A DNA stretch of 61,481 nt, counting the filler. It is 5 parts of 5 records of this genome, joined end to end, with 100 filler letters (N's around TTAATTAATTAA, not from the genome) between each part and the next. Parts side by side here need not be neighbours in the genome. Positions count along the whole stretch, not along the records: positions 48,047 to 53,633 come from SRR31156797_11508; 4 more parts are not named here. One strand, written 5' to 3'. This document shows, piece after piece, positions 13,700 through 53,733 of the stretch. Below the pieces are notes generated by a model. It was not told the origin of the DNA and made no database searches. It saw only the letters and a program-made list of their open reading frames with translations. A program made the position numbers and the translations under genes. The first letter of the stretch is position 1. Each line of letters begins with the position of its first letter.

Positions 13700-13799
13700 N
13701 NNNNNNNNNNNNNNNNNNNNNNNNNNNNNNNNNNNNNNNNNNNTTAATTAATTAANNNNNNNNNNNNNNNNNNNNNNNNNNNNNNNNNNNNNNNNNNNN
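13700..13799. other. Artificial contig linker
   Basis: N44-TTAATTAATTAA-N44 (stops in all six frames); composition changes across it. Confidence 0.99.
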
Positions 13800-28329: not shown

Positions 28330-28429
28330 NNNNNNNNNNNNNNNNNNNNNNNNNNNNNNNNNNNNNNNNNNNNTTAATTAATTAANNNNNNNNNNNNNNN
28401 NNNNNNNNNNNNNNNNNNNNNNNNNNNNN
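28330..28429. other. Artificial contig linker
   Basis: N44-TTAATTAATTAA-N44. Confidence 0.99.
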
Positions 28430-47297: not shown

Positions 47298-47946
47298 CTA
47301 GCAGGTTGGCAAGTATTTATCTATCTCCCACTCGGTAACAGTTGAAATATATTCCTTCCATTCTGCTTCCTTAGCCATTACATAGTTTGTGAAGATATGC
47401 TCGCCAAGAGTCTCCTTAACCAATTCATCTTTCTTCATTGCGCATATTGCATCATAGAGATTTGCTGGAAGTGCCTTCACTCCTGCTTCGCTTAATGCTT
47501 CTTCGCTCATTGAGAAAATATTTTGTTCAACGCTTTCAGGCGGTGTTTTTCCATTCTTTATTCCATCAAGTCCAGCCTTTAACATACATGCAAATGCCAA
47601 ATATGGATTACATGATGGATCAGGATTACGAAGCTCTATTCTAGTGCCCTGTTCTCTTGCTGCTGGTATACGGATAAGAGGTGATCTGTTCTTTGTTGCC
47701 CATGCTGCATATATTGGTGCTTCATATCCAGGTACCAGTCTCTTATATGAATTTATTAATGGATTAGTTAGTGCAGTAAAGCCCTGCACGTGATCTAAAA
47801 CGCCTGCAATATAGCTGTAGCAGTCTTTTGACAGTCCTCTTTTATCACTTTCATCGCAGAATGCATTCTTGCCATCCTTAAACAATGATTGGTTTGTGTG
47901 CATTCCTGAACCGTTTATGCCGAATATTGGCTTTGGCATAAATGAT
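47298..47946 (-). CDS. glnA: Glutamine synthetase type I, C-terminal part (5'-truncated by contig edge)
   Basis: FMPKP..GINGSGMH, NSYKRLVPGYEAP, NRSPLIRIP, RIELRNPDPSCNPYL. Confidence 0.96.
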
Positions 47947-48046
47947 NNNNNNNNNNNNNNNNNNNNNNNNNNNNNNNNNNNNNNNNNNNNTTAATTAATT
48001 AANNNNNNNNNNNNNNNNNNNNNNNNNNNNNNNNNNNNNNNNNNNN
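47947..48046. other. Artificial contig linker
   Basis: N44-TTAATTAATTAA-N44. Confidence 0.99.
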
Positions 48047-48231: not shown

Positions 48232-51200
48232 GTGATGATGACTGAGCCAAAGCTAATTGTGTACCAAAAATTGATCCGGGATAAAATTCCTCAACTTATT
48301 AAAGCTAAAGGTAAAGAAGCACACGTTAGGAAAATACGGGGCCGGGAGCTTAAGGATGCGGTGGGACGCAAAATTCTTGAAGAAACCTTTGAACTTCTTG
48401 ATGAATGGCAGAAAGAAAATCGAGACGATATTTTAAAGGAATCTGCTGATCTACTTGAAATTGTTCTTAAGGCCTTATCCGTACATGGCTTTACATTGGA
48501 TGATCTGCTGCAACGGCGGCAGGAAAGAGCAGCAGGCCGGGGGGCTTTTGAAAAACAATTCTTTCTGGATCAGGTCGGCGGCAGTGAGTTGATTGAGAGC
48601 CAAACCTCTAACCAACCGGCAATGGTATTCAACCCAACTCAACAGAAAGAATTGTTCTGGATTATCAGAAGTGAACTGAAACTGAGCCGCTGTGTCCGGA
48701 TTGCCTCCGCCTTTTATTCGCCGGGAGCCACAAACCTGATTATGGCGGAGCTGACCCACTTCATTGAAGCGGGCGGTGATTTAAAAGTGATTCTTTCCAC
48801 CATGGGAAATATAATCAAACCGCTGTATTTTTCCCATTTTAAAGATAACCTGCCTGGAGCAGACCTGCGGGTGTTTCATCCGCCCCATATCCCTTTAGAA
48901 CAATCTCCGCCCGGCTTCCATGTTAAGACCTGGCTTTTTGAGCATCATGACGGTCAGGGCGCTTTTATTATAGGTTCATCCAATCTGACCCGGAAAGGGC
49001 TGACGCAGAATATCGAGTGGAACTATTATTCCGCAGGAGAGGTGAACCTGACCTTTGATGGAAAGGACTCTCCCCTTTCATCCTCAGTCAATGAATTTGA
49101 ACGGGTATGGAAAAATGAGACCACGCAAGTCACCGACGATTTTCTGAAAGCCTATGATCGGAGACGCAAATTATCTGAAACAAAGCCAGACGCTTCCGGC
49201 AATGTGGAATTCGCTGTGTTTGAAGATGTCGCCAGCTATAACCCGCTTCCGGAATCTGTCTGGCCGTTACCTGCTATATCTCCAAACAGCGCTCAGCAGG
49301 AGGCTCTGATAAATCTTACAGAGTTCAGGGGCCAGGGCGTAAGCAAGGCCGCTGTAATTGCGGCCACAGGCGTTGGTAAAACCTGCATGGCTGCCTTTGA
49401 TTTCAAGAATAGCGGATGCCGCACCATGCTTTACGTTGCCCATCGGGAGGATATTTTGATCAAATCCCGGGAGACATTTTGCAGGGTGCTGGAAACCCAG
49501 TCTTTCGGCGATATCCTTGGCCGTGGCCGGATGGTATCTGAAGACCGTGAGGGCGTCTTTGCCATGATCCAGACCTTGAGCCGGAATAATCACCTTGAAT
49601 CTTTTCTGCCCGGGGATTTTGACTACATTGTCATTGACGAGTTCCATCATGCCGCTTCGGACAGCTATCGGCGGATACTGGACTATTTCCGCCCCAGGTT
49701 TCTGTTGGGGCTGACCGCAACGCCGGAACGGATGGACGGTCGAAACGCGCTGGCCTACTGCGATTATAATATTGCCTATGAAGTTCGGTTGCTGGATGCC
49801 GTTGATCGGGGATATTTGGTGCCGTTCCAGTATTATGCCATTTATGATGAAATCGATTACAGTCAACTGACTTGGCGGGGCAACCGGTATGATGGAAAGG
49901 AATTGGAGCGGGCCCTTGAAAACGATACCCGTACCCGGATAATTGTCCGGAATCTGAAACGGTATCTGCCGTCTTCAGGGAAAATCAAGGCGCTTGCATT
50001 CTGTTCATCGGTGAGCCACGCCCGGTATACCGCAGACCGCATGACTCGGGATTATAACCTTCCGGCCATTGCCCTGTGGGGAGACTCCGGAGACGGAAGC
50101 CGTCATGAGGCCGTTGAAAGGCTTCAGAATGAATCCGATCCCCTGAATGTAATCTGCACTGTAGATATTTTCAATGAGGGCACCGATATACCGGCCTTAA
50201 GCCACGTCCTGCTGCTACGTCCCACCCAGTCGTTCACAGTGTTCCTCCAGCAGATGGGCCGGGGTCTAAGAAAAGCGGATGGTAAGGATTTTCTTGTGGT
50301 TCTGGATTTTGTTGGCAATTTTAAAAAGGCCCATGTGGCCCCGCTGGCCTTGTCCGGCCATACCTCGTTGGATCAGTTTACCGCATCTTTTGGTAGCTCA
50401 CCGAAAGAAAAATTGGAAACCTGTTTGCCCAAAGGGTGTTTTTTAAGCTCGGATACCCGGGTTCGGCGGATCTGGGACGCTGAAATTAAAAAAATTGTAA
50501 GCAAGGGCATAACCGTAGCCGAACGTCTGAAAATAGCGTACCAAGAAATCAAGGAGAACCTGGGTAAAGATACGCCATTAAACCTTATGGACATGATGGA
50601 CAATGCCCTGGATATAGATCCTTGCCTGTTCCTGAAGCCCAAACCCTTCGGGGCCTGGCTCAGGGCAAAAGATTACTGTGAAGACGGTAATATTCCGGCT
50701 CGGGAAAAATCATATATGGGTACCCCAGGAGAATATCTGCTTAGGCATATTGAAGCAGGGCTCAAACCCACCAAATCTTATAAAATGGTGGTACTCCTTT
50801 CCCTGCTCCAACTTGGTGGTACATCCTGGGCGGTGGATGATATTGCGGAAAAATTTCTCTTCCATTACCTGGACCATCCGGATCAGATGTCTGACTGGGA
50901 TGCTCTGGCAAGGCATTCAATACCGGCAGATTTTCCCTTGTCTATAGTGAGGACTCATTTAAAAAATATGCCCCTGGAAAAGATGAGCAATGCAAACACG
51001 GACTGTTTTGTGTTGGTCAAAAAAAACAATCAATTCAGTTTGAAACCGGAATACGCAAAATTTTGGAACGATCCTTTTTTCATACACCTTGTTAAAGACA
51101 GGGTCGATTTTGTCCTATCCAGATATTTCAAACGGGAACGACTCAATCAGCTTCTGAAAATTGATCCGGCGGGATTTACCAGCGGTGTTATCCTGAATAG

Positions 51201-51462
51201 CAAGTTTGCTGAAACCTTCCTTCAGAACATGCCCCTATACCCGGGTAAAAAACGGAGCGTAACGTTCATGATAGGAGAGACATCCCTCAATGCATCGCTG
51301 GTACGGCGCAAACCGGAAGGTGATTATTATTTATTTTGTTCAGGGAAAAGCAGTCTGCATGAACAGATTTGGGCTCACTTGGCAGTATCTCAGGACAAGG
51401 AAAAAGCAACCTGCTGTTTGACAGCAGATAAAACCAGATTGAGAATAAAAATGATCAAATAA
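48232..51462 (+). CDS. MazG/HisE-like NTP pyrophosphohydrolase + PLD nuclease + SF2 helicase fusion (SauUSI-like core)
   Basis: YQKLIRDKIP...EETFE...ESADLLE...RGAFEK; FHVK...GSSNLT...NIEWN; ATGVGKT, DEFHH, GLTATPER, FNEGTDIP, QQMGRGLR; true start may be ATG 48238. Confidence 0.88.
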   Translation: MMMTEPKLIVYQKLIRDKIPQLIKAKGKEAHVRKIRGRELKDAVGRKILEETFELLDEWQKENRDDILKESADLLEIVLKALSVHGFTLDDLLQRRQERAAGRGAFEKQFFLDQVGGSELIESQTSNQPAMVFNPTQQKELFWIIRSELKLSRCVRIASAFYSPGATNLIMAELTHFIEAGGDLKVILSTMGNIIKPLYFSHFKDNLPGADLRVFHPPHIPLEQSPPGFHVKTWLFEHHDGQGAFIIGSSNLTRKGLTQNIEWNYYSAGEVNLTFDGKDSPLSSSVNEFERVWKNETTQVTDDFLKAYDRRRKLSETKPDASGNVEFAVFEDVASYNPLPESVWPLPAISPNSAQQEALINLTEFRGQGVSKAAVIAATGVGKTCMAAFDFKNSGCRTMLYVAHREDILIKSRETFCRVLETQSFGDILGRGRMVSEDREGVFAMIQTLSRNNHLESFLPGDFDYIVIDEFHHAASDSYRRILDYFRPRFLLGLTATPERMDGRNALAYCDYNIAYEVRLLDAVDRGYLVPFQYYAIYDEIDYSQLTWRGNRYDGKELERALENDTRTRIIVRNLKRYLPSSGKIKALAFCSSVSHARYTADRMTRDYNLPAIALWGDSGDGSRHEAVERLQNESDPLNVICTVDIFNEGTDIPALSHVLLLRPTQSFTVFLQQMGRGLRKADGKDFLVVLDFVGNFKKAHVAPLALSGHTSLDQFTASFGSSPKEKLETCLPKGCFLSSDTRVRRIWDAEIKKIVSKGITVAERLKIAYQEIKENLGKDTPLNLMDMMDNALDIDPCLFLKPKPFGAWLRAKDYCEDGNIPAREKSYMGTPGEYLLRHIEAGLKPTKSYKMVVLLSLLQLGGTSWAVDDIAEKFLFHYLDHPDQMSDWDALARHSIPADFPLSIVRTHLKNMPLEKMSNANTDCFVLVKKNNQFSLKPEYAKFWNDPFFIHLVKDRVDFVLSRYFKRERLNQLLKIDPAGFTSGVILNSKFAETFLQNMPLYPGKKRSVTFMIGETSLNASLVRRKPEGDYYLFCSGKSSLHEQIWAHLAVSQDKEKATCCLTADKTRLRIKMIK

Positions 51463-51560: not shown

Positions 51561-52730
51561 ATGTTTGGATTTGTCCGTAATATGTTTGATAGAAAAATTG
51601 AAACTGAATTAAAAATAACTGCCGGGGAATATCCGGTTATTAACATTATCGGGCCTCGACAGTCTGGAAAAACCACCCTGGCTAGAAATTTTTTCCGGAA
51701 TCATACCTATGTAAATCTTGAAAATCCTGAACTTCGCAGCCTTGCAGCAGATGATCCCAAAACATTTATGCTGCGCTACCCTGCACCTGCAATATTTGAC
51801 GAGATACAAAATATCCCTGAATTATTATCATGGATTCAGGTGTCTGTTGATGAAACGCCTGAACTGACCGGGGGATATATTCTGACCGGCAGTCATCAGC
51901 TGCAATTAAGAGAGGCAATTACACAATCCCTGGCAGGAAGGACAGCGTTACTGACGCTTTTTCCTTTTGCCCTGAATGAATTTGAAAAAGCTGATATTCA
52001 ACTTGAAAGGGAGGTCTTGATTCATAAAGGATTTATGCCAAGGCTTCATGATAAGAATATAAGACCTGGACGCTTTTACATGGATTATTTCCAAACTTAT
52101 GTTGAAAGAGACGTTCGGAAACTGATGGCCATTGAAAACAGCCAAGTATTTGAGCTTTTCCTTAGACTTTTGGCCGGTCGGGTTGGCAGTGAGATCAACT
52201 ACAGCGCACTATCCGGACAGGTTGGTATCAGCGCGCCGCAGATAAAAAAATGGATTAGCCTTTTGGAAGCCTCTTTCATTATTTTCAAAGTTCCCCCGTT
52301 TTTTAATAATTTCGGTAAACGCCTTACTAAATCGTCAAAAATTTATTTTGTTGAGGTAGGACTTGCCTGTTATCTTTTGGGGATAGAAACCCCGGAGCAA
52401 CTGGAACGGGATATGGCCTTTGGCGGGCTCTTTGAGAATATGGTGATTGCTGAAGCTTATAAATCAAGGATAAACAAAGGTCTGGAACCGCGCCTTTATT
52501 TTTATCGCGACCGGCATCAACATGAGATTGATCTTCTCTACCCTTCCGGCTCATCCTTTACCCCGATTGAAATAAAATCATCACGAACCTATAGAGATGA
52601 ATTTTTAAAGGGCATCCGTTATTTTCAAAAAATTTCCGGGTCCAACCAGCCTGGAATACTGATTTATGATGGCGACATTGAAATGGACAAAGAAGAAGCC
52701 TTGATCAGAAATTTTCGACGAGTCTGGTGA
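51561..52730 (+). CDS. AAA_14 ATPase with DUF4143 domain
   Basis: GPRQSGKT, FDEIQ, LTGS, SLAGR, TYVERD, KIYF, FEN, YFYRD...EID, IEIKS; start may be ATG 51582. Confidence 0.92.
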   Translation: MFGFVRNMFDRKIETELKITAGEYPVINIIGPRQSGKTTLARNFFRNHTYVNLENPELRSLAADDPKTFMLRYPAPAIFDEIQNIPELLSWIQVSVDETPELTGGYILTGSHQLQLREAITQSLAGRTALLTLFPFALNEFEKADIQLEREVLIHKGFMPRLHDKNIRPGRFYMDYFQTYVERDVRKLMAIENSQVFELFLRLLAGRVGSEINYSALSGQVGISAPQIKKWISLLEASFIIFKVPPFFNNFGKRLTKSSKIYFVEVGLACYLLGIETPEQLERDMAFGGLFENMVIAEAYKSRINKGLEPRLYFYRDRHQHEIDLLYPSGSSFTPIEIKSSRTYRDEFLKGIRYFQKISGSNQPGILIYDGDIEMDKEEALIRNFRRVW

Positions 52731-53633: not shown

Positions 53634-53733
53634 NNNNNNNNNNNNNNNNNNNNNNNNNNNNNNNNNNNNNNNNNNNNTTAATTAATTAANNNNNNNNNNN
53701 NNNNNNNNNNNNNNNNNNNNNNNNNNNNNNNNN
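53634..53733. other. Artificial contig linker
   Basis: N44-TTAATTAATTAA-N44. Confidence 0.99.

Follow-up and report, generated by a model that had tools for sequence, protein, structure and literature searches.

SauUSI-type enzymes, in which a nuclease of the phospholipase D (PLD) family is joined to a superfamily 2 (SF2) helicase, are found coupled to nucleoside triphosphate pyrophosphohydrolases (NTP-PPases) that come in two unrelated folds, and this coupling occurs as a fusion, as overlapping genes or as adjacent genes. The fused form is found in the window studied here, a stretch of 61,481 nucleotides (filler included), in which one gene encodes an NTP-PPase of the all-alpha MazG/HisE type, a PLD nuclease, an SF2 ATPase, a helical coupler, a winged helix and a B3 barrel in a single chain (the window protein; Table 1). 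This gene had been singled out by a model that saw only the letters of the stretch (hereafter the original prediction), which took the NTP-PPase either for a safety device that keeps salvaged modified bases out of host DNA or for a second defence arm. We propose, with the chances for and against evenly balanced in our judgement, that the N-terminal domain (N-domain) hydrolyses modified deoxynucleoside triphosphates (dNTPs), which would keep the mark that the enzyme reads from reaching DNA via the nucleotide pool.

The Nudix-SauUSI partnership is already known, and the gene described here is a fused, non-homologous variant of it with a swapped reader. Xu et al. (2011) describe a conserved MutT/NUDIX-like gene that is linked to SauUSI, and no fewer than 60 SauUSI-like enzymes with a putative pyrophosphohydrolase linked to them, the function of which 'remains to be examined'. 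The link between a SauUSI-type enzyme and a pyrophosphohydrolase is thus not novel. Searches of open-access full text yielded no mention of a MazG-type partner or fusion of a SauUSI-type enzyme.

The N-domain displays the motifs EETFE (aa 50-54) and ESAD (aa 70-73), in line with the pyrophosphohydrolase of roughly 105 aa with intact acidic motifs that had been predicted. EExxE followed by ExxD is the metal-binding motif of the all-alpha NTP pyrophosphohydrolase superfamily; the predicted metal ligands are E50, E51 and E54 (48379-48393) together with E70, D73 and E76 (48439-48459), and RGxF, the C-terminal motif of the family, is located at aa 102-106. When the whole protein is scored against Pfam, MazG (20.1 bits, cut-off 22) and PRA-PH (17.6 bits, cut-off 21.3) both remain below their cut-offs, and when aa 1-143 are scored in isolation, each exceeds its cut-off (24.2 and 22.3 bits, respectively). 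An AlphaFold model of the domain, based on 59 sequences, has a predicted local distance difference test (pLDDT) score of 88 and consists of long helices at aa 37-60, 64-84 and 89-103 plus a short helix. A Foldseek search with this model returns HisE/MazG structures at all ranks from 1 to 17, with probabilities of mostly 0.96-1.0 and weak E-values (0.045-0.6), which are expected because the domain has only ~100 residues; the best sequence match in the PDB reaches an E-value of only 0.02. Based on these features of fold and sequence, we infer that the N-domain is an active (d)NTP pyrophosphohydrolase.

The fusion itself is real. The frame comprises 1076 codons with a GTG start and zero internal stops, as predicted, with all the quoted motifs present. 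Further ATG codons occur at 48235 and 48238, and the latter is the likelier true start by sequence comparison, because the close homologues P0002 and L081 have 1074 aa. To describe relatives, the best 120 database matches (42-92% identity) were aligned with the query, resulting in 121 sequences. The N-domain is part of the same chain in 105 of the 120 relatives, one of them being P0002 (1074 aa, 92% identity; contig of 596 kb). The whole frame is also present, at 92% nucleotide identity, in L081, a metagenome contig of independent origin. Several relatives have JGI names that combine helicase, HKD nuclease and MazG-type pyrophosphatase. An assembly artefact, such as a stop or frameshift near aa 110-130, is ruled out by the independent contigs and the 105 fused relatives.

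The same contigs indicate how the gene travels. The homology to L081-L083 (92% at the nucleotide level) extends from 87 nt 5' of the ORF to 23 nt 3' of it, and the flanks are unrelated: those of L081-L083 contain a cation-chloride cotransporter-like gene upstream and, in L083, a methyltransferase downstream. As the homology is confined to the gene, the gene moves as a single-gene cassette. Among plasmid (686 records matched) and phage (2176 matched) collections, every match begins at aa 121 or later and spans less than 80% of the query; the fused form is absent from these collections. On three metagenome contigs (L090 951-3844, L091 209-3102 and L093 10001-12894), a fused homologue of 52% identity is divided over two overlapping ORFs of 636 and 344 aa, for which a frameshift, decay to a pseudogene or a sequencing error common to all three could account. 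P0121 (1120 aa) is a MazG-PLD-helicase with a C-terminal Peptidase_S24 domain (LexA-like, self-cleaving; aa 988-1105, E 1.5e-8).

Judged by sequence, the nuclease-motor core is SauUSI-like, in agreement with the original prediction. The SauUSI structure 7clg matches aa 225-714 (E 1.5e-88) and PADLOC mREase_IV (PDLC03659) matches with an E-value of 2e-89, with coverage limited to profile positions 117-570 of 945; the tools now in use would class the gene as Type IV restriction. The motifs of the PLD nuclease and the full SF2 set, as listed beforehand, were all located: FHVK (aa 229-232; H230-x-K232 at 48919-48927) and GSSNLT (aa 248-253; GSSN, aa 248-251, at 48973-48984) in the nuclease, and Walker A GVGKT (aa 380-384; GKT at 49375-49383), DEFHH (aa 469-473; 49636-49650) and QQMGRGLR (aa 673-680) in the ATPase. 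PLDc_2 remains below its cut-off in the window protein (18.3 bits); both PLDc_2 and RE_NgoFVII match homologues. H230, K232 and GSSN are kept in 120 of the 121 aligned sequences and GKT and DEFH in all 121, while DEFHH and QxxGRGxR are invariant or nearly so. PADLOC PbeA also matches (E 2.4e-33). By analogy with SauUSI and BfiI, the protein would form a homodimer via its PLD domains.

To place the fusion among its relatives, 94 loci were surveyed, namely those of the best 80 of at least 588 relatives (species-representative genomes) and 14 metagenome contigs, and the ORFs called in them were clustered by all-against-all BLAST. Three small partner families recur beside the PLD-helicase gene: MazG-like, Nudix and methyltransferase. 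A stand-alone MazG-like gene of ~102-120 aa, homologous to the N-domain, is present in 10 of the 94 loci and shares a start/stop overlap with the PLD-helicase gene in L042, L057 and L067. The N-domain is fused in 13 of the 94, and the comparison of fusions with split pairs that the original prediction had proposed thus yields both forms. A MutT/NudG-like Nudix gene of ~133 aa abuts the PLD-helicase gene in 12 loci, with scores of ~85 bits for TIGR00586 and up to 89 bits for PRK10546. All 12 Nudix-linked enzymes belong to the DUF3427 class (DUF3427 was found in 15 of 24 proteins checked; class calls in the survey were made with a local hidden Markov model, HMM). The partners sort by reader: Nudix genes accompany DUF3427, and methyltransferases or split MazG-like genes accompany the winged helix. 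In L040 and L026, a MazG-like gene, a methyltransferase and a PLD-helicase form a three-gene array. PLD/SF2 paralogues of the winged-helix and DUF3427 classes, two or three per locus, lie within a few kb of each other in L074 (8805-14989), L057 (2422-12764) and L067 (834-12761), each locus with one MazG-like gene.

The conservation of the acidic residues bears on what the N-domain does. Among the 121 sequences, 90 carry the domain with intact ligands, 16 carry it with altered ligands and 15 have no domain. A structural or regulatory module, i.e. a second dimerisation clamp or a nucleotide sensor that gates the nuclease or the ATPase with catalysis being secondary, would suit several observations. 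In PMC7913695, SauUSI is described as a dimer held by its PLD domains, with a helical coupler and an SRA reader. All-alpha NTP-PPases are obligate dimers and a single-HKD nuclease likewise requires dimerisation, fusion and translational coupling commonly mark parts that are in physical contact, and three of the six ligands are replaced in a sub-lineage that keeps its N-domain (P0039-P0043, P0052, P0059, P0103 and others; e.g. QEGKDE in P0040-P0042). We nevertheless consider such a role quite unlikely. All six residues (EEEEDE) are complete in 36/36 operonic split genes and in 90 of the 106 fused proteins, the linker in front of the PLD domain is flexible in the model, about 15 of the 121 relatives dispense with the domain altogether, and a Nudix enzyme of unrelated fold occupies the same genomic place, Nudix enzymes being generally monomeric.

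The N-domain family at large comprises 3187 representatives at E ≤ 0.001, and among the top 150 the majority have 100-130 aa. In four genomes with surveyed loci, the MazG-like gene is single-copy and sited at the PLD-helicase locus. When 301 genomes of the class of L042's genome were sampled, 105 had a MazG-like match. Among the 30 loci with the best matches (1.5-kb flanks), 23 have a PLD-helicase gene directly after the MazG-like gene; at 20 lower-ranked loci (3-kb flanks), this arrangement recurs in 5, while 2 have a Nudix gene just upstream, 1 has a different helicase 1.3 kb away and 12 have none. Small genes retain all six acidic residues in 36/36 cases beside a PLD-helicase versus 20/24 elsewhere. 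Some members of the family thus stand free, whereas others have been recruited. The two loci with an upstream Nudix gene (MutT-like; L128 2568-3321 and L136 2546-3300) have no PLD-helicase within 3 kb, and each resembles a pairing of two distinct NTP pyrophosphatases. The MazG-like module is C-terminal in P0180 (832 aa; 615-719) and P0258 (854 aa; 645-749) and is repeated in P0174 (1253 aa; 12 stretches).

This distribution also helps to weigh the second defence arm, in which the N-domain would hydrolyse modified phage dNTPs (e.g. of the hydroxymethyl-dCTP type) or canonical dNTPs during infection, so that phage replication is starved or un-modified while the nuclease-motor attacks the phage DNA. 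A conserved NTP-PPase with intact ligands and its tight coupling to a nuclease speak for this option just as they speak for sanitation, and the Nudix partner family is the stand-alone PADLOC candidate PDC-S07 (E 5.8e-45). As sanitising enzymes would be expected to do, many homologues stand alone with no nuclease near (the 12 of 20 lower-ranked loci), and the turnover of small house-cleaning enzymes of the MazG, HisE and MutT types is usually low, which makes a second arm unlikely in our view.

The original prediction listed the N-domain, nuclease and ATPase correctly and left aa 701-1076 undescribed. This region was modelled with a pLDDT of 86 and is divided into coupler, winged helix and B3 barrel. 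Residues 761-970 align with the SauUSI coupler (7clg_B 618-798) in VIA-align (Z 8.7, root-mean-square deviation (rmsd) 2.4, 107 residues), a likeness at the level of the fold only. The B3 barrel matches VRN1, the LlaJI.R1 N-domain, the EcoRII N-domain and the BfiI C-domain in Foldseek (4i1k, E 9e-3; 6c5d; 3hqf; 3zi5), with probabilities of 0.75-1.0 and E-values from 9e-3 to 0.27. VIA-align gives Z-scores of 8.2-6.1 over 94-100 residues, NgoAVII B3 included, at 7-15% identity, which does not demonstrate common descent. The barrel is optional in the family, with relatives of ~960-985 aa having no B3 and relatives of ~1170-1185 aa having ~110 extra residues. DUF3427, which represents the SRA reader of SauUSI, scores 12.9 bits in the window protein versus a cut-off of 27.7, and a local DUF3427-like HMM matches at least 40 other PLD-helicases and none of the window clade. 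A missing SRA in fold lists alone is no proof, and aa 761-1076 are wholly occupied by the matches to coupler, winged helix and B3. Protein Atlas returns only leads below 0.9 for aa 760-1076 ('DUF8090' 0.84, DUF3427 0.78), and phmmer finds zero matches to aa 701-1076 in the PDB. Precomputed annotation assigns some of the relatives to family PF26350. The window protein is therefore without an SRA/DUF3427 reader and has a winged helix plus B3 in its place, and the cutting of modified phage DNA put forward in the original prediction is not established.

The winged-helix module is common to the window protein and to PLD-helicases of ~810-866 aa with methyltransferase or split MazG partners; a local HMM of it matches 45 ORFs at full length. 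In VIA-align, it resembles sulfur-binding domains, namely those of Hga (8h0l_B, Z 8.5, 112 residues, rmsd 2.6, over the whole 146-residue domain), SprMcrA (7ccd, Z 7.4) and ScoMcrA (5zmo, Z 7.3). If this module were a sulfur reader, the enzyme would cut phosphorothioated DNA and the N-domain would clear thio-nucleotides, a scenario that the dnd-associated TIGR04096 match of a contig neighbour and weak TIGR04095 and PbeA matches also bring to mind. Orc/Cdc6 and DpnI winged helices score nearly equally (Z ~7), however, and a Z-score of ~8 is the usual best value for unrelated models and hence within the chance range. A winged-helix profile built from 37 sequences finds no sulfur-binding domain and nothing else significant among PDB chain sequences (best E 0.11), the matches to PbeA and TIGR04095 span the helicase part only, and PMC10853773 describes PbeA as HKD plus SF2 and sulfur-binding domains as ordinary winged helix-turn-helix domains. 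The sulfur-binding likeness is a lead at the level of the modelled fold only, and a phosphorothioate-directed enzyme is very improbable.

The methyltransferase partners point in a further direction. A class I S-adenosylmethionine methyltransferase of ~200 aa is adjacent in 33 of the 94 loci, at ≤ 100 nt and on the same strand in 30, with matches to Methyltransf_25/11/23 and to the methyltransferase region of PADLOC mad2 (E 4.7e-18); L001 encodes a fused protein of 1066 aa, 56% identical to the window protein, with such a gene adjacent. In a restriction-modification (R-M)-like system of the NgoAVII/CglI kind, as opposed to Type IV, B3 and winged helix would read ordinary sequence and a separate methyltransferase would protect the host, the candidates being this class I enzyme of the relatives or the TIGR04096-like gene of which a fragment is present on the same contig. 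The B3 fold is common to EcoRII, BfiI, NgoAVII and LlaJI, and the MANTIS preprint (10.64898/2026.09.23.753747) proposes that a PLD-ATPase module resembling SauUSI is directed against DNA that lacks methylation. The window-lineage gene moves alone, though, with flanks unrelated to those of its 92%-identical copies. Among the 18 window-clade loci (16 central genes with strong coupler and winged-helix matches plus the cut L082; L090, L091 and L093 via their second ORF), the clustered methyltransferase is near only in L001, L083 (opposite strand), L087 and L088. DNA-methylase motifs of the DPPY/NPPY or PCQ type are absent from the one partner methyltransferase inspected (L019), and the methyltransferase-like gene of the window is convergent and two genes off. 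We therefore rate an R-M-like system as improbable. The second-arm, structural and R-M-like options are all compatible with an active N-domain and are not mutually exclusive with it.

Returning to the removal of modified dNTPs, the window protein would be a self-contained ATP-dependent endonuclease of the restriction type, built on the SauUSI plan of PLD nuclease, SF2 translocase motor and helical coupler, in which the single-HKD nuclease pairs with a second copy to cut. Compared with SauUSI, two modules would have been exchanged: the reader for a winged helix plus B3, and the separate Nudix enzyme for the fused MazG/HisE-type domain. The latter would remove modified dNTPs, for example those freed by the degradation of marked DNA, so that the mark read by the nuclease enters DNA only through site-specific modification and never through the nucleotide pool. 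As a result, the host chromosome would be spared self-restriction, or the phage would be kept from acquiring the host mark, and the enzyme would function on its own, in the form of a Type IV-like cassette with one gene. 5-Methyl-dCTP is a substrate of E. coli NudG and of the MazG-type human DCTPP1. The safety device of the original prediction gains support because split MazG-like genes and unrelated Nudix genes occupy the same place beside related PLD-helicases; the cutting of modified DNA is the part that is not established.

Several points weigh against this proposal. The reader is not an SRA domain, and the B3 structures of EcoRII, BfiI and NgoAVII were, by their entry titles, determined with ordinary cognate DNA; unmodified DNA may thus be what the enzyme targets. 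The domain is retained in the 16 of 106 fused proteins altered in at least one acidic residue, a hint that in some lineages its role may not be catalytic. The MazG-like family is common (105/301 genomes) with many copies away from a PLD-helicase, and part of the linkage could mirror a general housekeeping gene. The methyltransferase beside 33 of the 94 related genes suits R-M-like logic better than Type IV. Lastly, the context linked to the gene is only 5.6 kb. More broadly, NTP pyrophosphohydrolases of unrelated folds (Nudix with SRA-type enzymes, MazG-like with winged-helix-type ones) may be a general 'mark-fidelity' component of DNA-modification immunity that destroys modified dNTPs, so that the mark by which self is told from non-self is written on DNA only and never taken up from the pool, with the clean-up physically coupled to the motor-nuclease that would make modified nucleotides by shredding marked DNA; this generalisation is tentative and, in our estimate, somewhat unlikely.

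The position of the window protein among known systems follows from these comparisons. With SauUSI it shares the single-HKD PLD nuclease, the SF2 DExH ATPase and the helical coupler in the same order, as well as the genetic coupling to a small nucleotide pyrophosphohydrolase. It differs in having a winged helix plus B3 and no SRA/DUF3427, and in its all-alpha MazG/HisE enzyme, which is N-terminally fused, whereas that of SauUSI is a separate Nudix gene. NgoAVII, CglI and BfiI have the same domain types, i.e. PLD, B3-like and SF2 ATPase (PMC7913695). In NgoAVII and CglI, PLD and B3 form one protein, the ATPase is another and there is a cognate methyltransferase, while BfiI has no ATPase; in contrast, the window protein is one chain that starts its core with the PLD and ATPase domains and ends in B3, with an NTP-PPase added and B3 optional. 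The N-domain equals a full-length member of the stand-alone MazG/HisE-like 'house-cleaning' enzymes of ~105 aa, with the same ligands and fold, and JGI names this family 'predicted house-cleaning noncanonical NTP pyrophosphatase, MazG superfamily'; the window copy differs by being fused to a nuclease-motor, and the searches brought up no protein of precisely this subfamily whose substrate has been determined. MANTIS MtsD and PbeA likewise have a PLD plus SF2 module related to SauUSI but rely on partner ATPase, DndE and methyltransferase genes and have no NTP-PPase. MANTIS-type partner genes (ATPase, DndE, methyltransferase) were found neither on the window contig nor beside close relatives.

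Table 1. Features of the gene encoding the window protein, its domains and its contig (positions along the whole window)
Feature	Position	Strand	Remark
Artificial contig joint, left end of the gene's contig	47947..48046		N44-TTAATTAATTAA-N44
Whole gene (P0001), MazG-like / PLD / SF2 ATPase / coupler / winged helix / B3, single chain	48232..51462	+	1076 aa
All-alpha NTP pyrophosphohydrolase domain, MazG/HisE-like, aa ~8-112	48253..48567	+	Pfam, model, Foldseek, ligands
Linker between N-domain and PLD, aa ~113-135	48568..48636	+	Low model confidence, pLDDT 64-48 in blocks 121-143
Single-HKD PLD-family nuclease, aa ~136-330	48637..49221	+	SauUSI nuclease alignment from aa 225
SF2 (DExH) helicase-like ATPase, aa ~345-700	49264..50331	+	ResIII E 5.9e-31, Helicase_C E 4.3e-10
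Helical coupler, aa 701-830	50332..50721	+	Model; first 60 residues of low confidence
Extended winged-helix module, aa 831-970	50722..51141	+	VIA-align fold matches
B3-type DNA-binding pseudobarrel, aa 971-1076	51142..51459	+	Foldseek and VIA-align
AAA_14 + DUF4143 ATPase, 389 aa, same contig	51561..52730	+	PADLOC PDC-S01 candidate defence gene, full length, E 1e-91
TIGR04096-like 'DNA phosphorothioation-associated putative methyltransferase', C-terminal 280 aa, cut by contig end	52792..53631	-	Profile positions 178-350 of 478
Artificial contig joint, right end of the gene's contig	53634..53733		N44-TTAATTAATTAA-N44

The window consists of at least five contigs, with further joints of the same kind at 13700-13799 and 28330-28429, and because it is built of contigs joined by linkers, gene order across the joints carries no meaning. 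The guanine plus cytosine (G+C) content amounts to ~0.38-0.43 left of 47947, 0.41-0.51 within the contig of the main gene and as much as 0.56 to the right of 56000, and given these differences the source bin may be of mixed origin. The gene's contig (48047-53633, 5.6 kb) contains the main gene and two further genes only. Both are of defence type (PDC-S01, TIGR04096), which upholds the two neighbours named in the original prediction; the genes upstream in the window are located on other contigs. No counterpart of the AAA_14+DUF4143 gene lies beside relatives of the main gene in the surveyed loci, and it is probably an independent island gene. The TIGR04096-like gene, scoring 144 bits versus a cut-off of 150, likewise has no homologue adjoining relatives of the main gene in these loci. 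Scans of the contig for promoters and terminators gave 13 versus 9.0±2.8 and 9 versus 7.0±2.1, respectively, i.e. no excess. The C-terminal 213 aa of a glutamine synthetase (47298-47939, minus strand) end at a contig edge, which represents assembly truncation and not gene disruption.

In staphylococci, SauUSI, which has a conserved pyrophosphohydrolase partner, is a major obstacle to gene transfer. In many Bacillota an overlapping gene upstream brings the MazG-like fold to this class of enzymes, and here an N-terminal domain does so; the recruitment of an unrelated fold argues for the hydrolase activity as such being part of safe or effective restriction. If the winged helix is a sulfur reader, the mark-fidelity partnership could extend to phosphorothioate backbone marks. 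The SauUSI chassis is also used with other target-recognition modules (winged helix plus B3, no SRA), and with such swapped readers automatic 'Type IV methyl-directed' labels for these genes may be wrong. With the fused form, the nuclease, motor and pyrophosphatase functions can be told apart by point mutants of one gene, which makes it a test bed within a single polypeptide. The value of the finding therefore lies in the argument from convergent recruitment and in this one-gene test system rather than in a new kind of system.

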